A stretch of 43,875 nucleotides of DNA from Vicinamibacterales bacterium (GTDB lineage: Bacteria > Acidobacteriota > Vicinamibacteria > Vicinamibacterales > SCN-69-37), in assembly GCA_046590915.1 (NCBI GenBank), contig JBKJTD010000202.1, positions 1-43,875 of the forward strand, read 5' to 3'. Each line of letters begins with the position of its first letter. Position 1 is the first letter of the stretch. Shown here in pieces: positions 545 to 25,844 of this stretch. Both the position numbers and the translations under genes were made by a program. Under the pieces are notes generated by a model, which saw only the letters and a list, made by a program, of their open reading frames with translations, searched no databases and was not told the DNA's origin.

Positions 545-616
545 GCCAATGAGCCAATGGGGCAATGAGGCAATGCAATGGGGCAATGCACTTCATTGGC
601 CCATTGGCCCATTAAC
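543..616. repeat. Octamer array. Direct units are GAGCCAAT GAGCCAAT GGGGCAAT GAGGCAAT GCAAT GGGGCAAT; they are followed by inverted units CATTGGCC CATTGGCC CATTAAC
   Basis: Read directly. The array starts on the symporter stop codon and ends 13 nt before the protease ATG at 629. The direct and inverted units can pair (GAGCCAATGAGCCAATGG vs CCATTGGCCCATTGGCCC). Confidence 0.8.
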
Positions 617-628
617 AAAGGTCACCGG

Positions 629-3600
629 ATGCCCAAACGAACCCTCCTATTCGCAGCCACCCTCCTGATCGCATCATCGATCCCGTCCGCACAGTCCAGT
701 GACGAGCCGCTGTGGAACCGCTACCCGGCCATCTCGCCTGACGGATCGCAGATTGCGTTCACCTACAAGGGTGACCTGTACCTCGTCCCCTCATCGGGCG
801 GCACGGCGCGGCCGTTGACGATGCATGAGGCGCATGACTTTATGCCCGTGTGGAGTCCGGACGGGACGCAGATCGCGTTTGCGAGTGACCGCTACGGCAA
901 CTTTGATGTGTTCATCATGTCGGTGAAGGGTGGCGAGCCTCGGCGGCTCACGACGCACTCGGCGCCAGAGTCACCGTTCACCTTCGCGCCAGACGGACAA
1001 TCGATTGTCTTCGGGGCGGCGCGCCAGGACACGGCCGAACATCGCGGATTCCCCACCGGGTACATGCCGGAGCTGTACAGCGTACCCGTTGCGGGCGGAC
1101 GCGCCACGCAGGTGCTGACGACACCTGCAGAGGATGTGCAGTACAGCCGCGATGGCCGGCAGATGATTTACCACGACAAAAAAGGCCAGGAGAACGCCTG
1201 GCGGAAACACCAGGTGTCAGCCGTTGCACGTGACATCTGGGTGCAGGACACGCAAGCGGGCACACATCGAAAGATCACCACGTTCGAGGGCGAAGACCGG
1301 AACCCGATCTTCACCGACAGTGATCGGGCGTTTTACTACTTGTCTGAGGCGAGCGGGTCCTTCAACGTCCACAAGATGAACGTCGCCGGAGGTCAGTCGC
1401 AGCAGTTGACGCAGTTCAAGGCGCGTCCGGTGCGATTCCTCACGATGGCGCGCAACGGAATGTTGTCCTTCAGTTACGACGGCGCGTTGCACACGATGAC
1501 TCCTGGTCAGCAGCCGCGCAAAGTGCCCGTCACCATTGCCGCTGATGCCCGCGCCACCAACGAGCGCATCGTCACCGTCACTGGCGGCGCGAGTGATCTC
1601 GCGGTCGCTCCATCGGGCAAGGAAGTGGCCTTCATCGCGCGTGGCGACGTGTTTGTCACCAGTGTTGAGGGTGGCGTCACCAAACAGATCACCAGGACTC
1701 CTGAATCCGAGCGATCCCCCACGTTTTCTCCTGACGGCAAGACGCTGGTGTATTCGTCCGAGCGCGGAGGGCACTGGCAGATTTTTGAAGCGCGTCGCAC
1801 GCGTGACGAAGAGCTGCACTTCTACGCATCAACCTTGGTGCGCGAGACGCCGATGATCACTGACGCGGCTGAGAATTATCAGCCGCAGTTCTCGCCTGAC
1901 GGGAAACAGCTCGCCTACATTGAGAACCGGATGGCGCTGAAGGTCTATGACCTTTCGGCGAAAACGACGAAGGCGCTCTTGACCGATCAGCATTTGTTCT
2001 CGATGGGCGATCACGATCAGTACTTTCAGTGGAGTCCGGACAGCCAGTGGTTGCTGTTTGACTACGCGGTGCCGGGTATGGCGCCTGGCGAGGTCGGCCT
2101 CGTGCGCGCGGATGGCAGTGGGCGGGTCGTGAACCTGACGCAGAGCGGCTTCAACGACTCGCGGCCGCGCTGGATTCTCGACGGCAAGGCGATGCTCTGG
2201 TTCAGCAACCGCGACGGCCTCAAGAGCGTGGCGCAGTCAGGCGGCGCGCAGGCCGACGCCTACGGGATGTTCTTTTCGCAAGATGCCTGGGACAAATTCC
2301 GGCTGAGCAAAGAGGACTTCGCACTCATCAAGGAGGCGGAGGAAGCCAAGGCCAAAGTCGATGCGGCGGCCAAGAAGGATCCGGCCGCGCCCACACCTCC
2401 GCCGATACCGCTCACGCTGGAACTCGACGGCGTGACGGATCGGAAGGCTCGTCTCACCATTCACTCCTCGTCCCTGGGTGACGCGCTGGTAAGCAAAGAC
2501 GGCGAGTCCCTCTTTTACCTAGCGCGTTTTGAGCGCGGGCTGAACCTGTGGACCACCACCGTGCGCACGCGCGAGACCAAACAATTGGTGGCGCTCAACG
2601 CCAACAGCGGCAGCCTGCAGTGGGACAAGGACCAGAAAGTTTTGTATCTGCTTTCCGACGGTTCCCTTTCCAAGATTGACCCCGTCAGCGGCAAGCGGGA
2701 TCCGATCGGTATCAGCGGTGAGAAGGTGCAGGACCAGGCGGCGGAACGCAAAGCGCAGTTTGAATCGGTGTGGCGTCGCACCAAGCAGACCTTCTACACA
2801 AAATCGATGCACGGCATCGACTGGGATGAGGTCAAACCCGATTACCTGAAGTATCTGTCGCACATCGGCAACAGCTACGAGATGTCCGAGATGCTGGCGG
2901 AGATGCTGGGCGAACTCAACGTGTCGCACAGCGGGTCGTCCTATGCGCGGACCGGAACAGATCTCGACGCGACAGCGTCGCTCGGCGTGTTTTACGACCA
3001 GACCTACCACGGTGCCGGCTACAAGGTGGCGGAGGTCGTCAAGGGCGGCCCTCTCGACAAGGCAGGCATGAACGTGACGGCGGGGTCCATCATTCAAGCC
3101 ATCGATGGCGAACAGATTCCAGTTGACCGCGATCTGGCGCAGTTTCTGAATCGCAAGGCGTCGAAGCGGACGTTACTCACGATTGCGGACGCCGCAGGAG
3201 CGACGCGCGATCTTGTGGTCATGCCCATTCCACCTGCGGAAGAAGGGCGACTGCTCTACACGCGCTGGGTGAAGCGCAACGAGGCAGAAGTGGACCGCCT
3301 CAGCAACGGCACGCTCGGCTACGTGCACATTCCCGGCATGAACGACGGCGCGTATCGCACCACAGTTGAAGAAGTGTTCGGCAAGTTTGCGACACGCAAG
3401 GGACTGGTCGTCGATACGCGCAACAACGGCGGCGGCGACCTGGTCGCCGACCTCGACATGTTCCTTACCGGCAAGTACTTCTTCGACTACACGACCGACG
3501 GCCGCAGCACCGGGTTTGAGCCGAACTTCCGCTGGACCAAACCGAGCATCGCGTTGGTCAACGAGGCTAACTACAGCGACGGCCACTGCTTTGCCTGGAC

Positions 3601-3865
3601 CTATCAGGCGCAGAAGATCGGTCCGCTCGTCGGCATGCCTGTCCCCGGCACGTGTACGTTTGCCGGCTGGGCCACATTGCCCGACACCGGCATCCGCTGG
3701 GGCGTTCCACCACTGGGCGTCAAGGATCCGAAAGCGAAATTTCTCGAGAACTGGCAGACCGATCCGGACATCCGAGTACCGCCGACTTACGAGGCGATCA
3801 GCAAGGGCAAGGACGAGCAGCTGGAAGCGGCCGTGGCAGCGTTGATGAAGACGACGGGACGCTGA
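629..3865 (+). CDS. Secreted TolB-like beta-propeller / PDZ / S41 peptidase (tricorn-protease-like), copy 1
   Basis: Signal peptide MPKRTLLFAATLLIASSIPSAQS. Repeated SPDG..IAF propeller motifs. PDZ-like segment YKVAEVVKGGPLDKAGM. S41-like segment VVDTRNNGGGD...NYSDGH. I chose the ATG at 629 over the ORF-track start at 578, which lies inside the repeat array. Confidence 0.85.
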   Translation: MPKRTLLFAATLLIASSIPSAQSSDEPLWNRYPAISPDGSQIAFTYKGDLYLVPSSGGTARPLTMHEAHDFMPVWSPDGTQIAFASDRYGNFDVFIMSVKGGEPRRLTTHSAPESPFTFAPDGQSIVFGAARQDTAEHRGFPTGYMPELYSVPVAGGRATQVLTTPAEDVQYSRDGRQMIYHDKKGQENAWRKHQVSAVARDIWVQDTQAGTHRKITTFEGEDRNPIFTDSDRAFYYLSEASGSFNVHKMNVAGGQSQQLTQFKARPVRFLTMARNGMLSFSYDGALHTMTPGQQPRKVPVTIAADARATNERIVTVTGGASDLAVAPSGKEVAFIARGDVFVTSVEGGVTKQITRTPESERSPTFSPDGKTLVYSSERGGHWQIFEARRTRDEELHFYASTLVRETPMITDAAENYQPQFSPDGKQLAYIENRMALKVYDLSAKTTKALLTDQHLFSMGDHDQYFQWSPDSQWLLFDYAVPGMAPGEVGLVRADGSGRVVNLTQSGFNDSRPRWILDGKAMLWFSNRDGLKSVAQSGGAQADAYGMFFSQDAWDKFRLSKEDFALIKEAEEAKAKVDAAAKKDPAAPTPPPIPLTLELDGVTDRKARLTIHSSSLGDALVSKDGESLFYLARFERGLNLWTTTVRTRETKQLVALNANSGSLQWDKDQKVLYLLSDGSLSKIDPVSGKRDPIGISGEKVQDQAAERKAQFESVWRRTKQTFYTKSMHGIDWDEVKPDYLKYLSHIGNSYEMSEMLAEMLGELNVSHSGSSYARTGTDLDATASLGVFYDQTYHGAGYKVAEVVKGGPLDKAGMNVTAGSIIQAIDGEQIPVDRDLAQFLNRKASKRTLLTIADAAGATRDLVVMPIPPAEEGRLLYTRWVKRNEAEVDRLSNGTLGYVHIPGMNDGAYRTTVEEVFGKFATRKGLVVDTRNNGGGDLVADLDMFLTGKYFFDYTTDGRSTGFEPNFRWTKPSIALVNEANYSDGHCFAWTYQAQKIGPLVGMPVPGTCTFAGWATLPDTGIRWGVPPLGVKDPKAKFLENWQTDPDIRVPPTYEAISKGKDEQLEAAVAALMKTTGR

Positions 3866-5316: not shown

Positions 5317-5535
5317 TCACCACCGCAACTTGTCCTTCCCTTTCGGAAAGATGCGGCGGGTCATCGACTCGCCAAGCCGGGCGGCCTTGTTCTCCTCCAG
5401 CGTGTGCAGATCGTCCAGACGACGGATGAAGAGGAGGTAGGTGATCTGCTCGATCACCTCGATGGGGTTGGAGATGCCGCCGGACCAGAACGCGTTCCAG
5501 ATCTGGTCAACTTGACTCTTGATCGTGCCGGTCAG
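5317..5535 (-). pseudogene. Remnant of the N-terminus of a type I R-M / N6-adenine DNA methyltransferase (HsdM_N-like); 72 codons, no ATG, premature stop
   Basis: My minus-strand translation is LTGTIKSQVDQIWNAFWSGGISNPIEVIEQITYLLFIRRLDDLHTLEENKAARLGESMTRRIFPKGKDKLRW*. The WNAFWSGGISNP..EVIEQITYLLFIRRLD block is the conserved N-terminus of this methylase family as I recall it. AGG sits where the ATG is expected, there is an in-frame TGA 3 codons upstream, and the rest of the enzyme is absent. Confidence 0.6.
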
Positions 5536-5627
5536 CCTGGGTCAGAGGATAGTACCGCAGCTCCTTGGTCGAGTCTCCGCTGCGCCACGGCTGTGTATCA
5601 CCCTTCATCCCTTTCGGGTGGATGCCA

Positions 5628-6896
5628 TTATTCGTAGCGCAGGGCGTCAACCGGATCGAGCAACGATGCCCGGCGGGCCGGCCAATACCCTGCGACCATG
5701 CCCACGACCACAGCGCTGACCACACCCGAGACCACCGCCCAGACGGGCGGCAGCGCCGGAAACGCCGGGGCCAGCGCCGCCGCGAGTGCGCCAATCGCCA
5801 GGGCGATCGAGACCCCGATGACGCCGCCTGCTCCGGCGAGTACGGCCGCCTCAAGGAGGAACTGCAGGCGCACCTCCTGTCGGCGCGCGCCGATGGCCAG
5901 CCGCAATCCGATCTCCCGGGTGCGCTCGGTCACGCTGATCACCATGACGTTGGCAATGCCGATCCCGCCGATGACCAGCGAGACGCCGGCGAGTGCGATG
6001 GTGGCCAAAAAGATCTGCGCGCCAATCTGATCGAAATTCGCGATGATCTGGTCGGCCGTCGACAGGGTGAAATCGTTCGGCGCATCGGCGGGCACGCCGC
6101 GCACCAGTCGCAACACGGTCTCTGTTTCCGCACGCGCGGCCTCACGCAGGCCCGGCCTGGCGCGCACGTAGAGCACCGTCTGCTCAGCGTCGGGAAATCG
6201 CCTGGTCGCTGTGCCCAACGGCAACGACACCACGCTGTCGTTGCGGTTTTCACCGAAAAAAGTCCCCTGTCTCGGTGCGAGCACACCCACCACGAAGTAG
6301 CGCTCACCACCAAGCAGGAATGCCTGCCCGAGCGCGTCGCTTGTGCCAAACAGCGACCGCGCAATGTTGGCGCCGAGCACGGCGACCGGCGCGGCCACAC
6401 GATTTTCTGTCTCCGTGAACGGGCGGCCCGAGGCAAAAGGAGTGTCGGCGACGTCAAACAGATTCGGCGACACCCCCTCGATGAGCACCGTATCGGACTC
6501 GTTGCCGCCCGCCCGTGCCGTGATCACACGCGTCGCGGTGGCCGCGGGGATCAGGAGTTGCACACCAACGTCGCGTACCGAAGGGGCCAGCCGCGTGATG
6601 GTCTCTGCCGTGGCCGCTGTCAGCGTCTTGCGGTTGGCATCGGCATCCGAGACGGACGAATACGGGTCGCCGTTGCGATGGAACGCAAAAATGTTCTCGG
6701 TGCCCAGTTCGCGAAACAGCTGCGCGACCGAATTACGCAGACCCACCAGCGTCGACGCCACCAGCACCACCGTCACGATACCGATCACAAGTCCCACCAT
6801 GGCGAGGACCGACCGTGCCGTGTGTACACGAATCGACTCCAGGGCGAGGATCGTCGCTTCTCGCGCCACATGCCGCCAGGAGGCTGCTGTGTTCAT
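5628..6896 (-). CDS. ABC-transporter permease, MacB/FtsX family (no ATPase domain)
   Basis: N-terminal TM segment SVLAMVGLVIGIVTVVLV, a large periplasmic domain, then the FtsX block ...REIGLRLAIGARRQEV... with a C-terminal GYWPARRASLLDPVDALRYE. The ATG at 6894-6896 overlaps the upstream stop (ATGA). Confidence 0.85.
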   Translation of the reverse strand: MNTAASWRHVAREATILALESIRVHTARSVLAMVGLVIGIVTVVLVASTLVGLRNSVAQLFRELGTENIFAFHRNGDPYSSVSDADANRKTLTAATAETITRLAPSVRDVGVQLLIPAATATRVITARAGGNESDTVLIEGVSPNLFDVADTPFASGRPFTETENRVAAPVAVLGANIARSLFGTSDALGQAFLLGGERYFVVGVLAPRQGTFFGENRNDSVVSLPLGTATRRFPDAEQTVLYVRARPGLREAARAETETVLRLVRGVPADAPNDFTLSTADQIIANFDQIGAQIFLATIALAGVSLVIGGIGIANVMVISVTERTREIGLRLAIGARRQEVRLQFLLEAAVLAGAGGVIGVSIALAIGALAAALAPAFPALPPVWAVVSGVVSAVVVGMVAGYWPARRASLLDPVDALRYE

Positions 6897-8116
6897 TCGG
6901 TCCTCAGGGCATCCACAACCGCCAGCCGCGTCGCCCGCCGCGCGGGATACCAGCCCGCCGCGAGACCACTTAGGGCCGACGCCACCACACTGGTAAGAAC
7001 CACACCAGGCGCGACCATGACCGGCAGATCGAGCGCGCCAGCAAGTGCCGCCACCACTGCGGCAGCCACGGCCAGTCCTGCAACACCCCCGATGATGGCC
7101 GTGAGCATCGACTCGGCCAACACCTCGCGGACGATCGCGCTGCGCCTCGCTCCGAGCGCCCGCCGCACACCAATCTCCCGCGTCCGCTGCGTGACCGACA
7201 CCAGCACCGTGTTGGTCACGACGACGATGGCGGCAAGGAGGGCCATCAAGGAGATGGGGCCTGCCGCCACACCGACGCGGCGCGTGAGGTTCGTCACAAA
7301 TCCGCGGGCGGCATCGGGCGTCAGAATATCGAAGGCATCGGGTTCGCCCGGTGCTTGTCCGCGACGCGCCCGCATGGAGACCCGCGCGTGATCTTCGGCC
7401 TCCTGGAACTCTCCTCCAGGCGTGGCTCGCGCAAACAGCGGCAACGTGCGCGGTGAGCCAAAGGCGCGCTGCCACGCGACAAACGGCACATATACGAACC
7501 GGTCGAGCGACGTGCCGTTGGAATTGCCGAGGCGGCTTTGTACGCCTATCACCACGAACCGCCGCCCGGCAATCCGGATCCCCTCACCCAGTGCCGTTCC
7601 GGTCGGAAAGAGCGTCTCGGCGATGTCCACGCCGATGACGGCCACCAGCGCCCCTGTGCGGTCGTCGTCGGACAACAGGAACCGTCCTTCGGCGATGGAG
7701 AGGTCACGCAAATCGGCGAGGGCCGAGGTGGTGCCTGAGACCGCCGCCATGTCGTAGGTGCGAGCGCCGGCAGTGACCTCGGCGACCGTCTGGACGTTGG
7801 GCGCATACATCACGCGATCGTCGGACACCTGTTCGAGGAAGCGCCAGTCCGCGCGTCGAATGGGCTGATTGCGGAGCAGTTGATCCTGCAACTCCTTCCG
7901 GGACACCCGGCCTGGTGAGGCCACCTGCGCAAGCAGGAATGTCTCGGCACCGAAGGCACGGCTGCTGGTGGCTTCCGCAGACGCGGCCACACCATCAAGC
8001 GCGGCGCTCACGATCACCTGGGTGGCCACAGCCACGGCGATGGCCAACGCCCCGAGCGCGGAGCGAAGACGGTTGGCGGCCAGCGTTGCCGCGGCCTGAC
8101 GGAAGGACTCCAGCAT
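6893..8116 (-). CDS. ABC-transporter permease, MacB/FtsX family (no ATPase domain)
   Basis: Same architecture as the neighbouring permease: ...TREIGVRRALGARRSAIV... and C-terminal GWYPARRATRLAVVDALRTE. Start taken at the MLESFRQAAATLAANRLRSAL methionine (8114-8116). Confidence 0.85.
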   Translation of the reverse strand: MLESFRQAAATLAANRLRSALGALAIAVAVATQVIVSAALDGVAASAEATSSRAFGAETFLLAQVASPGRVSRKELQDQLLRNQPIRRADWRFLEQVSDDRVMYAPNVQTVAEVTAGARTYDMAAVSGTTSALADLRDLSIAEGRFLLSDDDRTGALVAVIGVDIAETLFPTGTALGEGIRIAGRRFVVIGVQSRLGNSNGTSLDRFVYVPFVAWQRAFGSPRTLPLFARATPGGEFQEAEDHARVSMRARRGQAPGEPDAFDILTPDAARGFVTNLTRRVGVAAGPISLMALLAAIVVVTNTVLVSVTQRTREIGVRRALGARRSAIVREVLAESMLTAIIGGVAGLAVAAAVVAALAGALDLPVMVAPGVVLTSVVASALSGLAAGWYPARRATRLAVVDALRTE

Positions 8117-8157
8117 TGATACGACCGATCCCGGACCGTGCAAGTATAGAAGGTGTT

Positions 8158-9402
8158 GTGCGGACGTCTCGAGTGTTGGGTGTGGGCGCGCTGGTGGTGG
8201 TGGCTGCCGGCGCATGGTGGATGCTCCAGTCGCAGACGGATGATGCCGTGGATGTGACCACGGCGACGCTGGCGCGAGTGGAGGCGTTGCGGTCGTACGC
8301 CACCGCGTCGGGTGAAATTGTCGCGACCCGGTACGCCGATCTGGGGTCGTCGGTCATGGGGCGCGTGGTGTCCGTGAATGTGCGGGAGGGCGATCGCGTG
8401 CGTGTGGGACAGGTGCTCGCGCGGATCGATCCGGTGCAAGCCGAAAGTGCCGTCGCGTCTGCCTCCGCCGCACTACAGGCGCTTGAGTCGGAGGCCAGCG
8501 GTACGGACAAGTCCATCGCGGCTGCACAGGCAGACATCGACGTCGCCGTCGCGCGACAGACACAGGCCGGTCAGACTCTCGAGCGCGCGAAGAACCTGGC
8601 CGCCTCCGGCCTGGTCCCTAAGGCTGAACTCGACTCGGCCCAGGCGGCCGCAGATGCGGCGACCGCGCAGGTCGCAGCCGCACGCGCGGCCCTGGCGCGG
8701 GTGCAGCAGACGCGGGTCGCCGCCGGCCGCCGTGTTGCGCAGGGACGTGCCGAGCAGACACGTGTCGGCGATCAACTCGCCAAGACGAACATCACCGCGC
8801 CGATCGACGGTGTGATCACGCGGCTGGATGTGGAGGAAGGCGAGATGGTCGTGATGGGCGTCCAGAATCAGCCCGGCACCATTCTCATGACCATTTCCGA
8901 TCTGAGTTCGCTGAATGCGGAGGTCAAGGTGGCCGAGGCCGACGTCCTGCGTCTGGTGCTCGACCAACCCGGCGTCGTGACGCTCGACGCGTTGCCTGGG
9001 CGGCGATTCGACGGGCGCGTGGTGGAGATCGGCGCGAGCGCGTTGCCGCAGACCAGCGCCCAGGCGGCGGCGCGCGAGTTTCGCGTGACGGTGCGTCTCA
9101 CCGGCGACGTCTCTGCGCTGCGACCCGGACTGACGTGCGACACGGAAATTCTGGTCGCCGAACGCACGCAGGTGCTGGCGGCCCCCCTCCAGGCCGTGGT
9201 GCAGCGCGACGGGCGCAGCGGTGTATTTGTCGTCCGCGACGGCCGTGCGATCTTCACGCCGGTCACCACTGGCATCATCGGCGGCCTGACCATCGAAGTG
9301 GATGGGGTACCCGAAGGGGCCACGATCGTGACCGGTCCGTTCCAGCTCCTGCGTGAGCTGGCCGATGGCGCCCGTGTTGCGGAGACTTCGCGCCGGGACT
9401 GA
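8158..9402 (+). CDS. Periplasmic efflux adaptor (HlyD/MacA-type membrane fusion protein)
   Basis: TM anchor VLGVGALVVVAAGAWWML, an Ala/Gln-rich coiled-coil hairpin, lipoyl/beta-barrel motifs (VREGDRVRVGQVLARID, ITAPIDGVITRLDVEEGEMV). The GTG at 8158 is preceded by GAAGGTG. The start is uncertain. Confidence 0.8.
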   Translation: MRTSRVLGVGALVVVAAGAWWMLQSQTDDAVDVTTATLARVEALRSYATASGEIVATRYADLGSSVMGRVVSVNVREGDRVRVGQVLARIDPVQAESAVASASAALQALESEASGTDKSIAAAQADIDVAVARQTQAGQTLERAKNLAASGLVPKAELDSAQAAADAATAQVAAARAALARVQQTRVAAGRRVAQGRAEQTRVGDQLAKTNITAPIDGVITRLDVEEGEMVVMGVQNQPGTILMTISDLSSLNAEVKVAEADVLRLVLDQPGVVTLDALPGRRFDGRVVEIGASALPQTSAQAAAREFRVTVRLTGDVSALRPGLTCDTEILVAERTQVLAAPLQAVVQRDGRSGVFVVRDGRAIFTPVTTGIIGGLTIEVDGVPEGATIVTGPFQLLRELADGARVAETSRRD

Positions 9403-9411
9403 ATGCTCGAA

Positions 9412-12400
9412 CTATCGACCCTTGACCGCTTCCAGCTTCAGCCGTGTGGCTTCCGCATTGAACCCGGCAAGCTCCTTCGCGAGGATGCGCTCGAAGTTGT
9501 CGGTCAACACCTTGAGTTCGCCAGACAACGCTGTAAAAATCGGCAGCGCGTTGCCGATGGGTTTGCCATCGCCGCTGTTGATCATCGACATCAGCGACGC
9601 CAGCCGGTTGTTCACCTTGATCGGGAAGTTCAGGGGGTCTTGTCCGCTCTGATTCTTCACCTGGTAGATCTCGCCCTCCACTTCGCTGAGCGCCGCAACC
9701 AGGCTGTTGCCCATCGTCTTCAGCCGTGCATCAGGTGACTTGGACAATCGGTCCGAGACATCCGCTTTGATCCGGCGAATATCAATCACCGCCTGATTGG
9801 CTTCGCTGGTTTTGTCACGAATGCGAATCACCAGATCAAACTGCTCTTGCAGATCGGCGTCGGTGACATCGGTGTGCATGGGATGTTTCCTGACCTGGAA
9901 CGGCTGCGTCTGTGTGACACCATTGGCCGTCATCCGCACCTGATAGGTGCCCGGCGTCGCAAACGGTCCCTGCACGCCTCCGCCCCACAAAATCATGCCG
10001 GGGAAACTGGTCGCGGACGGGTAACGCAGATTCCACGTCACTCGCTGCATACCCTCCGCCATCGGGGCCATCGGGTTGCCACCACCTGCACGACCGCCGC
10101 CACCGCCGCGTCCCGCCGCCGGCGCCGCGCCACTGCCCCCGGACGCCCCTACAAACGTCTGTACGACCGCGCCGGTTGTGTCGATCACCTCAATGGTCAG
10201 ACTCTGCACCGCACCGGTGACCAGATACCCGATCGTCGCGCCTGCGGTCGATCGATACGCGGTCTCAGGTGCGAACAGGTACGCCGGCGCCGCAGCAGCC
10301 ACCGCAGGCGAGTACTGGCGGATCGGCGCAATGTCATCAAGCACGTAGAAGCCACGACCATGCGTCGAGATGACGAGATCGCGGTCCTCCACAATCAGGT
10401 CCGATACCTGCGTATTCGGCAGGTTCAATGACAACGGCAACCATGACCCGCCATCGTCATACGAAATGCGAACGCCCTCCTGGGTGCCCGCATACAGGAG
10501 ACCTCGACGCTTGGGGTCCTCTCGTACCGCGTGCACGTACTCGTCCGGATCGATGCCGTTGACGATCTTCGTCCATGTACGCCCGAAGTCATGCGTGCGA
10601 AAGATGTACGGCGAAAAGTCGTCGAGCAAGGGGCGCTTGACCGCCGCATACGCGGTGCCTGCGTCAAACGACGAAGCGTCGATGAGGCTGACGCGGCCGA
10701 ACTCCGGCATGGCAGGCGGCGTCACGTTTGTCCAGGTCTTGCCCCCGTCACGCGTCACATGAATCAGGCCATCGTCAGACCCGGCCCACAACACATTGGC
10801 GTCGGTCTTGCCGGGGGCCAACGTAAAGACCGTCGCGTACACCTCAGGCCCGTTCATGTCACCGGTGATTGGGCCGCCGGAGTGGCCCATGGTCTTCGGG
10901 TCGTGCCGAGACAAGTCGCCACTGATCCGGTCCCAGCTCTGACCGTTGTTCGTCGTGCGCCACACGTGTTGTGTGGCGGTGTACAACACACGTGGGTCGA
11001 CCGGCGAAAAGATGATCGGGAACGTCCACTGGATCCGCTCAACCAGGGCGCTTGCTGGCTCGCCTGAGAACATGCGCGGGTACGGGTGCACTTCACGCGA
11101 CTGGCCAGTGCGTCGATTGGTGTATTCGAGCCATCCACCGTTGACAGCGCCTGCGAAGAACACATCCGGGTCTTTCGGATCGGGCGCGATGTAGCCGGGC
11201 TCAAATCCGCCGGGGTTGTACATCTCCGGTGCGCCGCCGTCACGTCCGCCGGATGATTCGTTCGGGATGCACACCGTGTTGCCGTCCTGCTGCGCGCCAC
11301 AGACGTGATACGGCATGTGCTTGGTGGTGACGACGTGGTAGTACTGCGGTGTTGGAAAATCGCGTGACGTGAAGGGGTTGCCGCCGGTGTAGGTCACGGC
11401 GCCGCCGGTGTCACTGGCGTGCACAATGTGCTTCGGGTCACTGGGCTCGATCCACATGTCGTGGGAATCCCCGCCGGTGAAGCTGACCATGGTCTTGCCT
11501 CCGTCGGTAGACTTGAACGTGCCGACGTTGAGCACATACACCGTGTCGGCGTTGACCGGGTCTGCCGTGACATGCGTGTAGTAGAACGCGCGCTGGCGGA
11601 TGTTGCGCCCGCTGTTGACCAGCGTCCAGGTGGCGCCGGCGTCATCGGAACGGAACAGGCCGCCGTTAGCGTTTTCAATGACTGCGTAGACGCGGTTGGA
11701 GTTCGCAGGTGAGACGGACACGCCAACCCGGCCAATCATGCCCGACGGCAATCCAGGTCGACGCGTGAGTTCGGTCCATGTTTCACCGGCGTCGGTCGAC
11801 TTGAAGAGTCCGCTGCCTGGGCCGCCGCTCGACATCTGATACTCGACCCGGTAGGCCTCCCACATCGCCGCATAAATGACGCTGGAGTTATTGGGATCGA
11901 TGGAGATATCGATCGCCGCCGTCTTGGCGTCGCGGAAGAGCGTCCGCTTCCATGATTTGCCGCCGTCAATGCTCTTGTAGAAGCCGCGCTCGTCGTTCGG
12001 GGCGCCATGATGGCCGAATGCCGCCACATAAACGATGTCTGGATTTTTCGGGTCGATGCGAATCTTCGAGATGTTCTTGGCATCCCTGAAGCCGACATGG
12101 GCCCAGGTCTTGCCGGCGTCAGTGGATTTGTAGACGCCGTCACCCGACTGGATGTTGCCGCGGATACAGGTCTCGCCCATGCCGATGAAGACGATGTCCG
12201 GGTTGGTCTCGGAGACGGCGATGGCACCCACCGAGGCACTGCCGACGTGGCCGTCGGTGACAGGTGCCCAGGTCTGGCCGCGATCAATGGTCTTCCACAG
12301 CCCACCGCCCACAGCGCCGAAGTAGGCATGATCAGGGCGTCCGATCACGCCGGAGACCGCAAGCGACCGTCCGCCCCGATCGGGGCCGAGGCTGCGCCAC

Positions 12401-12552
12401 TGGAACATGCTCAGGTATGGGGGGAGGCCTGAGGCCGCCTGCTCGTCACCCGAGCGGCCGGCCAGCACTGGCAAAGAAAAGACACCGGCAAACACCAGGA
12501 CCAGCAGGATGCCGGCCACAAAAAGACGGGGACGACCGAGAGCGAGAGTCAT
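9412..12552 (-). CDS. Secreted BNR/Asp-box repeat protein (sortilin/VPS10- or GH74-like double beta-propeller) with a C-terminal extension
   Basis: At least 8 Asp-boxes, including STDAGKTW, SIDGGKSW, STDAGETW, SDDAGATW, STDGGKTM, TRDGGKTW, THDFGRTW and YDDGGSW. Signal/TM segment LFVAGILLVLVFAGVF. The ATG at 12550-12552 is preceded by GGAGGA. Confidence 0.8.
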   Translation of the reverse strand: MTLALGRPRLFVAGILLVLVFAGVFSLPVLAGRSGDEQAASGLPPYLSMFQWRSLGPDRGGRSLAVSGVIGRPDHAYFGAVGGGLWKTIDRGQTWAPVTDGHVGSASVGAIAVSETNPDIVFIGMGETCIRGNIQSGDGVYKSTDAGKTWAHVGFRDAKNISKIRIDPKNPDIVYVAAFGHHGAPNDERGFYKSIDGGKSWKRTLFRDAKTAAIDISIDPNNSSVIYAAMWEAYRVEYQMSSGGPGSGLFKSTDAGETWTELTRRPGLPSGMIGRVGVSVSPANSNRVYAVIENANGGLFRSDDAGATWTLVNSGRNIRQRAFYYTHVTADPVNADTVYVLNVGTFKSTDGGKTMVSFTGGDSHDMWIEPSDPKHIVHASDTGGAVTYTGGNPFTSRDFPTPQYYHVVTTKHMPYHVCGAQQDGNTVCIPNESSGGRDGGAPEMYNPGGFEPGYIAPDPKDPDVFFAGAVNGGWLEYTNRRTGQSREVHPYPRMFSGEPASALVERIQWTFPIIFSPVDPRVLYTATQHVWRTTNNGQSWDRISGDLSRHDPKTMGHSGGPITGDMNGPEVYATVFTLAPGKTDANVLWAGSDDGLIHVTRDGGKTWTNVTPPAMPEFGRVSLIDASSFDAGTAYAAVKRPLLDDFSPYIFRTHDFGRTWTKIVNGIDPDEYVHAVREDPKRRGLLYAGTQEGVRISYDDGGSWLPLSLNLPNTQVSDLIVEDRDLVISTHGRGFYVLDDIAPIRQYSPAVAAAAPAYLFAPETAYRSTAGATIGYLVTGAVQSLTIEVIDTTGAVVQTFVGASGGSGAAPAAGRGGGGGRAGGGNPMAPMAEGMQRVTWNLRYPSATSFPGMILWGGGVQGPFATPGTYQVRMTANGVTQTQPFQVRKHPMHTDVTDADLQEQFDLVIRIRDKTSEANQAVIDIRRIKADVSDRLSKSPDARLKTMGNSLVAALSEVEGEIYQVKNQSGQDPLNFPIKVNNRLASLMSMINSGDGKPIGNALPIFTALSGELKVLTDNFERILAKELAGFNAEATRLKLEAVKGR

Positions 12553-12678
12553 AAAGATGTTCCTCCAACAGACGTAGAGGAGCATAGCGGATACGGTCGT
12601 AATCCACGCCATTCGTCGGTCCATGAGGCCGTGAGGCCGGCCGCAGGACGTCCGAAGGGCGTGGATTCGTGCGCGTTG

Positions 12679-13227
12679 TTACTTGGGCATCAATACGGTG
12701 TCGATCACGTGGATGACGCCGTTCGACTGGTTCACATCAGCAATGGTCACCTTCGCCGTGCCGCCTTTTTCGTCGGTCAGGATCAGGTCGCTGCCCTTCA
12801 TCGACGCCCACAGCTTGCCACCGGCGACCGTCTTGATCTCGGCCTTGCCTTTGCCGTCCTTGATCAACTTGGCCACACCGGCCGCGTCCCACTTGCCCGC
12901 GACCACGTGATAGGTCAGGATGCCCGTCAGCGTCGCCTTGTTTTCTGGCTTCACCAGCGTGTCGACCGTACCGGCCGGCAGCTTCGCAAACGCCGCATTG
13001 GTCGGCGCAAACACGGTGAACGGGCCTTTGCCGCTCAGGGTCTCCACCAGCCCGGCGGCCTTGACTGCCGCCACCAGCGTGGTGTGATCCTTCGAATTCA
13101 CGGCGTTTTCAATGATGTTCTTCGTCGGGAACATCTCTGCGCCGCCAACCATCTTCGTTCCCATCTGGGCGCTCAGCGCCGCCGACACTACCATGACCGC
13201 CGCAGCGGTAATTGCTCGTACTTTCAT
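12679..13227 (-). CDS. Secreted fasciclin (FAS1) domain protein
   Basis: Motifs FTVFAPTNAAFAKLP, LTYHVV and NGVIHVIDTVLMPK. Signal peptide present. AAGGAGA ribosome-binding site upstream. Confidence 0.9.
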   Translation of the reverse strand: MKVRAITAAAVMVVSAALSAQMGTKMVGGAEMFPTKNIIENAVNSKDHTTLVAAVKAAGLVETLSGKGPFTVFAPTNAAFAKLPAGTVDTLVKPENKATLTGILTYHVVAGKWDAAGVAKLIKDGKGKAEIKTVAGGKLWASMKGSDLILTDEKGGTAKVTIADVNQSNGVIHVIDTVLMPK

Positions 13228-13320
13228 TTGGTCTCCTTGGAAGGCGTTTCGTCGCCCATTCTTGGATGTCTACGGCCGCCCAAGCGAACTGGATGGCGCC
13301 TCCGCTACAATGGCGGCGCC

Positions 13321-14937
13321 ATGGCCATGTCCAAACGCTCAGTCGCCGTCGTCCTGCCACTCCTGTTTGCGTCGGCCCTGATGGCTGCGCAACAGCAGCC
13401 TCCCGCACCGGCTCGTGTCGGCGGCATCGTTCCCGCGCCTGACCGGCGTCCAGATGAAGGGGTGGGACCCTTCCAGACGATGGTGATTCGAGGGGTGACG
13501 ATTATCGACGGCACCGGTGCGCCGCCGTTTGGACCAATGGATGTGGTGGTCGAGAACAACCGCATCGCCGCCATTCGGAGCGCGGGCACGCCAGGCATGC
13601 CGCTGCAGGCCAACCGGCCCCCGAAGGCACAGCACGAGATCGACGGCACGGGCATGTATCTCATGCCGGGTTTTGTGAACCTCCACATGCACGTGGGCGG
13701 CACGCCGAAATCGCCCGAAGCCGAATACACCTTCAAGTTGTGGATGGCGCATGGCGTGACGGCCGGCCGTGGCGTCGAACTCGGCCCGCAGGCCTACGCC
13801 GCGCCTGAGAAGGTCCGCGCCAACAGCAACGCGATCGTTGCTCCCCGCATCTTCAACTATCAGCGTCCCGGCGCCGGATGGACGCGTGGTTCAGTCACCA
13901 CACCTGAGATGGCGCGTGAGTGGGTGCGCTGGTGCAAGGAGAACGGCATCGACGGGATGAAACTCGTCTCGTACCCGCCGGCGATCATGGCGGCGCTGCT
14001 CGACGAAGCGAAGAAGCTCGGCCTGGGCTCCACCGCACACCTGGAACAGCGCGGCGTCGCGCAGATGAACGCGCTGACGGCCGCCAAGATGGGTCTGGGC
14101 ACGGTGACGCATTTCTACGGCCACTTCGAGGCGTTGCTCAAGGACTACGAGATCCAGCCCTGGCCGGCGCAGATGAACTACAACGACGAGTACTTCCGCT
14201 TTTCGCAGGTGGCTCGTCTGCACGACAAGATCTACGAGCCGGGCTCACCGCAGTGGAACGACTACCTCGCGGAGCACATCAAACTCGGCACCGTCTTCGA
14301 TCCAACGATGACTGCATATGCGGCAGGTCGCGACGTCATGCGCATGCGAAACGCGGACTGGCACGACAAGTACACGCTGCCCACGCTTCACGACTTCTAT
14401 CGTCCCGACCGCAACAATCACGGGTCCTACTTCTTCGACTGGACGCTCGACGATGAGATTCAGTGGCGCAAGTTCTACCAGGTCTGGTTCCGCCTGCTCA
14501 ACGACTACAAAAAAATGGGCGGCCGTGTCACAGCGAGCGACGATGCCGCGTTCATTTACAACACGTGGGGTTTTGGTTACATCCACGAGCTGGAGTTGAT
14601 GCAGGAGGCGGGTTTCCATCCGCTCGAAGTCATCCGCGGCGCCACGATGCACGCGGCGCAGGCGCTGCATGAACCTATGGGAAAAGAGATCGAATTCGGC
14701 ATCATCCGCGCCGGCATGCTCGCGGACATGGTGCTGGTCGATCAGAACCCGCTGCAGAACCTGAAGGTGCTGTACGGGACCGGCGCCGTACGGCTCAACG
14801 ATGCGACCAATCAGATCGATCGCGTCGGCGGCATCACGTGGACAATCAAAGACGGCATCGTCTACGACGCCAAAAAGATGCTCGCGGACGTGGCGGCGAT
14901 GGTCGAAAAACAGAAGAAAGAACGCGCTTCGCGCTGA
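13321..14937 (+). CDS. Secreted amidohydrolase-superfamily metallo-hydrolase
   Basis: Signal peptide MAMSKRSVAVVLPLLFASALMAA. HxH metal motif FVNLHMHVGG. C-terminal segment AGMLADMVLVDQNPL is typical of the family. Confidence 0.8.
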   Translation: MAMSKRSVAVVLPLLFASALMAAQQQPPAPARVGGIVPAPDRRPDEGVGPFQTMVIRGVTIIDGTGAPPFGPMDVVVENNRIAAIRSAGTPGMPLQANRPPKAQHEIDGTGMYLMPGFVNLHMHVGGTPKSPEAEYTFKLWMAHGVTAGRGVELGPQAYAAPEKVRANSNAIVAPRIFNYQRPGAGWTRGSVTTPEMAREWVRWCKENGIDGMKLVSYPPAIMAALLDEAKKLGLGSTAHLEQRGVAQMNALTAAKMGLGTVTHFYGHFEALLKDYEIQPWPAQMNYNDEYFRFSQVARLHDKIYEPGSPQWNDYLAEHIKLGTVFDPTMTAYAAGRDVMRMRNADWHDKYTLPTLHDFYRPDRNNHGSYFFDWTLDDEIQWRKFYQVWFRLLNDYKKMGGRVTASDDAAFIYNTWGFGYIHELELMQEAGFHPLEVIRGATMHAAQALHEPMGKEIEFGIIRAGMLADMVLVDQNPLQNLKVLYGTGAVRLNDATNQIDRVGGITWTIKDGIVYDAKKMLADVAAMVEKQKKERASR

Positions 14938-14972
14938 CGTTCACACGAGGTATGCAGGCGTGCAGTCACCTC

Positions 14973-15190
14973 CACCATGATGGTCATGAAGACCATGATG
15001 GGCGAGGGGTTGAATGCCGCCTGCGGCGGCATCGTGACAGGAGTGAGACGGGGAATGAATGCTCCGCTGGATGGCTTGAGGAGTATTCATTCCCCGTCTC
15101 ATTCCTGTCACGCGGCCCGGCGAAGCCGGGCCTTCAACCCCGATCGTCTGACGCGCATTTCTTCATGGATCCTCATGGATCTTCATGGTG
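14973..15190. repeat. 218-nt imperfect palindrome: 31-bp hairpin plus two small hairpins closed by a 9-bp stem (four-way junction), flanked by tandem 9-mers and 10-mers
   Basis: Pairings were checked base by base and are listed in the findings. My transcription was verified by translating the overlapping ORF-track entry 14977..15249. Confidence 0.85.
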
Positions 15191-15209
15191 AAAGACGCAC
15201 CGGTCCGAC

Positions 15210-16001
15210 TTATTTTCCCGCCAGTTCCCGAACCCAGATGTTCCGATAGCGCACTGGATTGGAGTGATCCTGCAGACGAATGGGTCCGCGCACTGAGGCG
15301 GGCACATATTTACCGACAATGCGATGTGCGGTTGGGCCCAAGAAAGGGCGGGCGTTGTGCACCAGAACGCCGTTGTGCAACATGGTGACGACCGCTGGTG
15401 ATTTGAGCGTGTCTGCCTCGTACCGAGGTGCGGTGAACGTGATGTCGTACGCCTGCCATTCCCCAGGCGGCCGCGAGGCGTTGACCAGCGGCGGGAACTG
15501 CCCATACATCGCGGCGGCCTGACCGTCCGGATACGTCGGGTTGTTGTCACTGTCGAGCACCTGAATCTCGAAGAGGCCTGCGAGATACACGCCGCTGTTG
15601 CCGCGGCCCTGGCCTTCCCCGCGCACCTGCGTCGGAGTCGCGAACTCGACGTGCAGTTGCACATCGCCAAACGAAGCCTCGGTCTCGATCGTGCCTTTCC
15701 CGGTCTGCGCGATGCCGTCTTCCACCGCCCATGTCACCGGTCCGCCGCCCACCTGTTGCCAGGCCGACATATCTCCGCTGGGCCCCAGCAGGATGGTCGC
15801 ATCAGAGGGCGGCGCGGCTACTCCTGCCCACGGCCCCGGTGTGACGACGGTCGGCTGCGGCCGGTTGCCATCGTGAACGCGCCACACCCCATCGGGCTGC
15901 ATCGGTGTGTCGTCGTATCCGAGCTTGGGCTGCTGGGTCATCACCACCGCCGACGCCAGCGAAGCGACAACAAGCACACTCACAGCCTTGAACTGACGCA
16001 T
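15210..16001 (-). CDS. Secreted DUF1080 / 3-keto-disaccharide-hydrolase-like (LamG-type jelly-roll) protein
   Basis: Family-typical motifs GNSGVYL, FEIQVLD, AAMYGQ and PIRLQDHSNPVRYRNIWVREL. Signal peptide MRQFKAVSVLVVASLASAVV. Confidence 0.75.
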   Translation of the reverse strand: MRQFKAVSVLVVASLASAVVMTQQPKLGYDDTPMQPDGVWRVHDGNRPQPTVVTPGPWAGVAAPPSDATILLGPSGDMSAWQQVGGGPVTWAVEDGIAQTGKGTIETEASFGDVQLHVEFATPTQVRGEGQGRGNSGVYLAGLFEIQVLDSDNNPTYPDGQAAAMYGQFPPLVNASRPPGEWQAYDITFTAPRYEADTLKSPAVVTMLHNGVLVHNARPFLGPTAHRIVGKYVPASVRGPIRLQDHSNPVRYRNIWVRELAGK

Positions 16002-25776: not shown

Positions 25777-25786
25777 TCGTTTAGGT

Positions 25787-25820
25787 CACAGGGAGGCACT
25801 GAGATCTGTGCCTCCCTGTG
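25787..25820 (+). terminator. Perfect 13-bp hairpin CACAGGGAGGCAC-N8-GTGCCTCCCTGTG after the receptor gene
   Basis: Read directly, 10 nt after the stop codon. The downstream tract AAAGTTCTCT is only weakly T-rich. Confidence 0.55.
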
Positions 25821-25844
25821 AAAGTTCTCTAGAATAGAGGCGCA

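Follow-up and report, generated by a model that had tools for sequence, protein, structure and literature searches.

Genomic Context of the Palindrome

The locus considered here is an intergenic spacer between two convergent genes, located in a 43.9-kb stretch of Vicinamibacterales DNA referred to below as the window. On the + strand, an amidohydrolase gene terminates with a TGA ending at 14937, while a gene of the DUF1080 (3-keto-disaccharide hydrolase) family on the minus strand terminates with a TAA at 15210-15212, as read from the sequence. The 272-nt spacer between these convergent stops is almost wholly taken up by a 241-nt imperfect palindrome, whose edges lie 22 nt from the amidohydrolase stop and 9 nt from the DUF1080 stop. 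A spacer of this length is unusual here, the other convergent spacers in the window measuring -7, 9, and 123 nt. The features of the locus are listed below, with no strand assigned to the palindrome or its parts.

13321..14937, + strand: amidohydrolase, about 538 aa, an estimate based on the lengths of homologues; homology to the contig of one relative (L004) runs up to 14938
14960..15200: whole imperfect palindrome, 241 nt, supported by folds, by alignment of one half against the other, and by a self-match of 78% over 138 nt
14973..15001: left subterminal repeats, with the terminus CACCATGA; CCATGA / TCATGA / CCATGA in 9-nt phase
15006..15014: 5' arm of the closing stem, GGGGTTGAA, pairing perfectly with 15133-15141
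15014..15032: side hairpin 1, ATGCCGCC-TGC-GGCGGCAT, 8 bp with a 3-nt loop
15033..15112: central hairpin, 31 bp (29 Watson-Crick and 2 G-T), flanked by C-G pairs; the loop of 16 nt spans 15065-15080
15114..15132: side hairpin 2, GGCCCGGC-GAA-GCCGGGCC, 8 bp with a 3-nt loop, mirroring hairpin 1 in position
15133..15141: 3' arm of the closing stem, TTCAACCCC, 9 perfect pairs with 15006-15014
15142..15160: asymmetric linker GATCGTCTGACGCGCATTT, 19 nt, the left counterpart being only 4 nt (GCGA) in the half-versus-half alignment
15161..15190: right subterminal repeats, with TCATGG (read as CCATGA on the minus strand) three times in exact 10-nt phase and the terminus TCATGGTG
15210..16001, minus strand: DUF1080 / 3-keto-disaccharide hydrolase family, 263 aa; relatives are homologous down to 15220-15223

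The window (63% GC) encodes ordinary chromosomal genes, including tricorn-like proteases, MacB/FtsX and HlyD transport components, a sortilin/BNR protein, RsmE, MatE, a sulfatase-TPR protein, and a Ser/Thr kinase, and among the listed matches the named homologues of the flanking proteins come from metagenome assemblies of Vicinamibacterales / Acidobacteriota. No transposase, integrase, recombinase, RAYT, Rep, or ParB gene was found in its 43.9 kb, and no GC-skew switch occurs within it. The long open reading frame at 12631-14937 overstates the amidohydrolase, whose homologues measure 523-573 aa and whose nucleotide homology to L004 begins at 13310. About 700 nt of apparently non-coding DNA (12625-13320) thus separate it from a divergent sortilin/BNR gene, and this interval includes an inverted repeat with 22-nt arms at 12601-12667.

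Architecture of the Palindrome

Every coordinate given in the preliminary description of this element was reproduced by a script check and a repeat search. The central stem joins 15034-15064 to 15081-15111 over 31 positions, with 29 Watson-Crick and two G-T pairs (15043/15102 and 15061/15084) around a 16-nt loop of sequence CGCTGGATGGCTTGAG. The two side hairpins that had been reported, TGCCGCC-TGC-GGCGGCA (15015-15031) and GGCCCGG-CGAAG-CCGGGCC (15114-15132), each contain seven perfect pairs, and in the minimum free energy (MFE) structure both extend to eight pairs with 3-nt loops. The 9-bp closing stem is perfect at 9/9 pairs, the junction linkers measure 0-2 nt, and the tandem left 9-mers CCATGATGG TCATGAAGA CCATGATGG (14975-15001) and the inverted, phased right 10-mers CTTCATGGAT CCTCATGGAT CTTCATGGTG (15161-15190) are present as described. 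The boundaries are the one point extended, since complementarity continues outward past the earlier limits of 14973-15190, with GTGC at 14960 pairing with GCAC at 15200. The termini CACCATGA and TCATGGTG are inverted, and the outer arms, including the GTGC...GCAC pairs, are paired in the MFE structure, so that terminal inverted repeats are present.

The palindrome can be described as two inverted copies of a half-unit, consisting of [CCATGA x3], a linker, GGGGTTGAA, an 8-bp GC hairpin, and CGTGACAGGARTGAGACGGGGAATGAATRCTCC, arranged around a 16-nt centre. In an alignment of the left half to the reverse-complemented right half, the likeness reaches 94% in the central arms and about 78% overall. 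The phased CCATGA triplet gives one match in the window against 0.02 expected and occurs nowhere else in it. Placed in register, the two side hairpins share 4/8 base pairs and differ in the remaining 4/8 on both sides, and both hairpins are nevertheless perfect. These paired differences are compatible with structure having been maintained; they are no proof of selection on RNA, because any two perfect hairpins would give this pattern and quasipalindrome correction at the DNA level could produce it as well. The four-way junction emphasised in the preliminary description needs no special explanation, because a palindrome with a small hairpin in each half-unit yields one automatically.

Folding, Strand Preference, and Coding Potential

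The folding calculation proposed alongside the preliminary description places the palindrome far beyond its shuffled counterparts, with z about -12 on both strands. The MFE of the + strand RNA is -153.6 kcal/mol (z -12.6) and that of the minus strand RNA is -143.1 kcal/mol (z -11.9), with 0/200 shuffles as good in either case. Under DNA parameters, the core at 15006-15141 folds at -64.6 kcal/mol (z -14.4). In an inverted-repeat scan, the palindrome is the strongest inverted repeat of the window, and its GC content (58%) is lower than that of the window (63%).

A + strand transcript had been suspected from the two G-U pairs of the central stem. This hint is not significant, as the central stem has only these two transition mismatches, and the alignment of the whole left and right halves contains three G-T against one A-C. 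The minus strand fold is nearly equal to that of the + strand, which is better by 10.5 kcal/mol, and such a strong, non-random fold on both strands fits a palindrome at the DNA level rather than a strand-specific RNA. A scan of 14938-15209 on both strands identified no terminator-like site and no U-tract after any stem, and its sole promoter-like match is weak, on the minus strand, and within a stem arm. The two central arms, 15034-15062 on the + strand and 15111-15082 on the minus strand, each carry a sigma-70-like GTGACA followed, after an 18-nt spacer, by AATGCT or AATACT. Only the minus strand version passed the scan (9/12 matches), and any activity it had would start transcription within the stem, toward the antisense strand of the amidohydrolase.

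Two + strand reading frames are open through the palindrome. In frame 3, the left CCATGA repeats (14967-15004) would be translated into the His/Asp-rich peptide HLHHDGHEDHDG, within a 117-aa ORF at 14838-15191 that stays open across the palindrome; the second is a 90-aa ORF at 14977-15249. A search with the concatenated translations of the open frames, designed to catch spurious ORFs called on other copies of the palindrome, returned nothing at E<=10 from a protein library of 5.8e9 clusters. Among 1.84e9 representatives, only two proteins matched the 90-aa ORF, both of them satellite-like tandem-repeat proteins scoring through the sum of weak repeats, and these matches were rejected as non-homologous and spurious. 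A small protein or His-rich peptide (the HHDGHEDHDG frame) was likewise rejected, being without homologues, and the palindrome is, as judged from its reading frames, non-coding.

Comparison with Related Genomes

The locus was compared with the contigs of relatives carrying either flanking gene, namely three with the amidohydrolase (L004, L005, and L006, with 94%, 83%, and 80% amino acid identity, respectively) and ten with the DUF1080 gene (L007-L016, 88-82%), the longer of which keep the order MatE-RsmE-DUF1080. In blastn alignments with the window, homology stops almost exactly at the two stop codons. L004 aligns up to 14938, one base beyond the amidohydrolase stop, and on the other side the alignments of L007, L008, and L016 reach 15220-15223, and that of L012 stops already at 15234. 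What follows each gene differs between genomes: in L004 a different + strand gene begins 19 nt after the amidohydrolase stop, in L007-L011 an unrelated convergent gene of 467 aa lies 3 nt after DUF1080, and the next feature is a PIN toxin-antitoxin pair in L012-L015 and a CarboxypepD_reg gene in L016. The relatives' spacers after DUF1080 measure 3-14 nt, and blastn and nhmmer found no palindrome-related sequence in 65 kb of the relatives' loci.

The C-termini of both flanking proteins are as long as those of their homologues, so that all of the additional DNA is intergenic. The palindrome is absent beside both genes in the relatives, where the neighbouring genes also differ, so that no clean empty site can be aligned. 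Since homology ends at the two stops and the relatives carry other neighbours, the whole 272-nt spacer is lineage-specific and located at a synteny breakpoint; the amidohydrolase and DUF1080 blocks are adjacent in no sampled relative. These comparisons bear directly on the possibility, raised in the preliminary description, of a conserved structured RNA, which an absence of conserved pairing in orthologous spacers was to count against. In the relatives sampled, the orthologous spacers hold nothing alignable, those after DUF1080 being just 3-14 nt in length, and a conserved structured RNA is not supported. The related proposal of a 3' UTR of the amidohydrolase as a conserved feature fares no better, as homology stops at 14938 and the palindrome is absent in the relatives.

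The surroundings of both genes are variable in other respects. L004 965-1201, just upstream of the amidohydrolase in this 94%-identical relative, matches window positions 5319-5555, so that about 7.7 kb of the window (5556-13309; two MacB/FtsX, HlyD, and sortilin/BNR) are either missing in L004 or the region has been rearranged, and the amidohydrolase context is thus variable on both sides. PhdYeFM/PIN toxin-antitoxin pairs lie on one or both sides of DUF1080 in L008-L009 and L012-L015, with none in the window or in L007 and L016, and these insertions mark the DUF1080 flanks as a recurrent insertion hotspot of the lineage.

Searches for Further Copies and Known RNA Families

No second copy of the palindrome was found in the window, and blastn gave no match in plasmids and phages. 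In the GTDB and JGI DNA collections, the search used exact 19-20-mers from the central arms only, a design that diverged copies would escape. Within this scope, the 20-mer common to both central arms gave three single-arm matches in unrelated organisms among the GTDB species genomes, about the number expected by chance, and the central-arm seed gave eight matches in the JGI metagenomes, all confined to the seed and again about the chance number. In IMG/VR, a 16-mer was found at 96 loci, 0 of them with both arms and none extended past the seed by blastn, and a degenerate pattern of the terminal repeats returned two chance matches. Rfam yielded 0 matches at the gathering score, with BTH_s1, 6S, and Acido-1 among the families covered; under permissive settings, the matches were miRNA-precursor hairpins, reflecting generic long stems, and BTH_s1, with 23.3 bits against a gathering score of 74.

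Comparison with Known Elements

REP elements normally occur in tens to hundreds of copies per genome and are associated with RAYTs. The palindrome resembles their composite forms (REPIN or BIME) in that a pair of units in inverted orientation, both containing a short GC-rich stem-loop of 8 bp with a 3-nt loop, folds into one long hairpin. In addition, it is non-coding and lies no more than about 20 nt from the 3' ends of convergent genes, a placement typical of REP elements (PMC3733652), and the different stems of its two REP-like hairpins recall the described 'heterodimers' (PMC3733652). REP assignment relies on a GTAG or CGTC tag beside a short stem-loop, and the loops of the CGTC families measure 4-5 nt (PMC3733652), whereas the loops here are of 3 nt and neither tag is present, the side hairpins being followed by CGTG and GCGTG, not by GTAG or CGTC/GACG. 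The unit is also much longer, at about 110 nt per half, with phased CCATGA subterminal repeats, and one copy was found here, with no RAYT (Y1 transposase) gene in the 43.9-kb window.

A second comparison is with bacterial MITEs and the long palindromic repeats of intergenic regions, among them ERIC/IRU (127 bp), Correia (100-155 bp), YPAL, and Nezha. The palindrome falls into their 100-300 nt class, with terminal inverted repeats and the potential to form a hairpin over its whole length, and like them it is intergenic, non-coding, probably co-transcribed with its neighbours, and apparently lineage-specific in presence and absence. It differs in having no detected sequence similarity to ERIC, Correia, YPAL, or Nezha, no identified cognate IS, and no target-site duplication, none being found at 14960/15200, at 14973/15190, or around 15006-15141 (GGCGA versus GATCG).

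Among structured RNAs, the nearest comparison is BTH_s1 (Rfam RF02690), a Burkholderia thailandensis sRNA of about 200 nt, in which a closing stem surrounds several hairpins, and which was seen experimentally as a multi-hairpin transcript encoded between convergent genes (PMC4035088). Membership was rejected, given the score of 23.3 bits against 74, a match confined to GC hairpins, and a source in a different phylum. Bidirectional terminator or mRNA-stabilising hairpins resemble the palindrome in position and in self-complementarity on both strands, but it is about ten times larger than needed and has no U-tract on either strand, while the other convergent pairs in the window manage with -7 to 123 nt.

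Several further identities were considered and rejected. An integron attC site likewise appears as an imperfect palindrome directly downstream of an ORF with variable context, and GTTGAAT fits the GTTRRRY core; however, the core is reversed here (5'-GTTRRR...YYYAAC-3' instead of 5'-RYYYAAC...GTTRRRY-3'), the palindrome is longer than attC, and there is no integrase or cassette array in the window. The GGGG inverted repeats around 15006-15141, considered as a Tn3-type end, are flanked by no 5-bp duplication and show no similarity past GGGG. A protelomerase, dif, origin, or terminus site is opposed by the non-palindromic centre and the lack of a GC-skew switch, and a retron or 6S RNA by the lack of a nearby RT gene and of an Rfam match.

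Interpretation and Rival Explanations

The palindrome is a real, lineage-specific, non-coding feature at a synteny breakpoint, with relatives undetected in the collections searched. Of the three options offered in the preliminary description (a MITE/REP-like element, a structured ncRNA or 3' UTR, and a protein-binding site), the MITE/REP-like one emerges as the most plausible, though undemonstrated, because the palindrome looks like a lineage-specific insertion; the conserved 3' UTR or RNA is not supported. The reading tentatively preferred here, to which we assign slightly short of an even chance, is that of an orphan insertion of REPIN/BIME or MITE type that, if transcribed, would act as a 3'-end hairpin insulating the convergent genes. 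It is supported by the build as an inverted dimer with a short GC hairpin in each unit, the position near convergent stops, and the apparent presence or absence between relatives. The location at a rearrangement junction counts for the repeat class as well, since it is expected if dispersed repeats recombine. The palindrome is only a candidate for formal membership among MITEs or REPs, with no target-site duplication, no tag, no second copy in the collections searched, and no cognate transposase in the window.

The palindrome may have arrived by insertion, or it may be a copy of the repeat that remained where a recombination or rearrangement took place. Both convergent mRNAs would then run into it, and the transcribed palindrome would be expected to fold into a hairpin of about -150 kcal/mol. 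When transcribed, REP, ERIC, and Correia elements block 3'-to-5' exonucleases and/or read-through. By analogy, the hairpin here could block such exonucleases and/or stop read-through, insulating the two genes from each other, and it is likely that both convergent mRNAs carry a very stable 3' hairpin limiting read-through and exonucleolytic decay.

The palindrome might instead have been generated locally and have no dedicated function, through an inverted duplication or template switch at the junction that joined the amidohydrolase and DUF1080 blocks, after which quasipalindrome correction by intrastrand template switching kept the arms and small hairpins perfectly paired. The single copy wherever searched, the position exactly at the synteny breakpoint, the lack of a target-site duplication or nearby mobile gene, and the nearly equal folding of both strands are all in keeping with such an origin, but the modular build, with CCATGA triplets, a closing stem, two unlike side hairpins, and a long central stem, goes beyond a simple inverted duplication in its elaboration, and halves only about 78% alike outside the central stem that nevertheless retain perfect helices suggest maintenance of structure. 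A local origin is regarded as unlikely, at perhaps one chance in five. The compensated differences at 4/8 pairs of the side hairpins can also be read in favour of a lineage-specific structured RNA, either a stand-alone sRNA or a + strand RNA derived from the 3' UTR of the amidohydrolase, with a four-helix junction, for which Burkholderia BTH_s1 offers a comparable sRNA of several hairpins. The advantage of 10.5 kcal/mol on the + strand, the two G-U pairs where the minus strand has C-A, and the full-length, sub-threshold match to BTH_s1 (23.3 bits), itself a transcript detected experimentally between convergent genes (PMC4035088), point the same way. Nevertheless, the two G-U pairs carry no statistical weight, the structure is conserved in no sampled relative, no Rfam family reaches its gathering score, and the other sub-threshold matches are miRNA-precursor hairpins; the single promoter-like site is weak, on the minus strand, and in a stem arm, and no terminator U-tract is present. 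This RNA is considered improbable.

At the DNA level, the inverted CCATGA boxes, three per side, could be bound by a multimeric protein, with a cruciform-prone core between them, as a protein-binding or recombination site. Such an arrangement of boxes is also that of transposon ends, iterons, and sites of site-specific recombination. The box spacing of about one helical turn (9 and 10 bp), the hexamer count above expectation (1 match versus 0.02), the exact 10-nt phase on the right, the inverted termini, and the DNA fold at z = -14.4 agree with this arrangement, against which stand the unequal spacing of the boxes (9 on the left, 10 on the right), the occurrence of the triplet nowhere else in the window, the lack of any partner gene (transposase, recombinase, Rep, or ParB) in 43.9 kb, and the lack of a GC-skew switch hinting at an origin or terminus; such a site is rated the least probable of the explanations, at about one chance in ten. 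A bolder view combines elements of the last two, holding that the palindrome is a single-copy functional device of one uncultured Vicinamibacterales lineage, either a new, perfectly stacked four-helix-junction RNA made from the spacer or a cruciform DNA site clamped by a protein that recognises the helically phased CCATGA triplets on either side. Selection for structure would then account for the mirror side hairpins differing at 4/8 pairs yet remaining perfect. This device is rated as improbable as the structured RNA above. Overall, the reading as a conserved RNA lacks support, and that as a repeat element, though plausible, is unproven.

Significance and Other Inverted Repeats

The Vicinamibacterales are an abundant, barely cultured group of soil bacteria. 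If the palindrome belongs to a dispersed repeat, this would be the first palindromic repeat family described for the group, useful for marking strains and as a source of rearrangements in the genome, the latter suggested by its position at a synteny breakpoint in this locus. If single-copy, the palindrome would illustrate how so large a hairpin can arise de novo between convergent genes. In either case, current concepts remain unchanged, and the locus mainly advises caution against calling an impressive fold a conserved RNA without comparative support.

Other inverted repeats were noted in the window. One at 548-613, with 21-nt arms that are 90% complementary (AATGAGCCAATGGGGCAATGA / TCATTGGCCCATTGGCCCATT), covers the beginning of the ORF of the tricorn-like protease at 578-3865. 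Another, at 25786-25821, is a 17-bp hairpin (TCACAGGGAGGCACTGA/TCTGTGCCTCCCTGTGA) located 10 nt past the stop of a CarboxypepD_reg/OMP gene. Its arm sequence GGGTTCACAGGGAGGCACTGAGG... recurs at L016 8110-8212 within a longer palindrome with 46-nt arms, flanked by a CarboxypepD_reg gene and a MacB gene convergent with it, and the two hairpins could be a conserved terminator or else belong to a family of REP-like hairpins in Vicinamibacterales.
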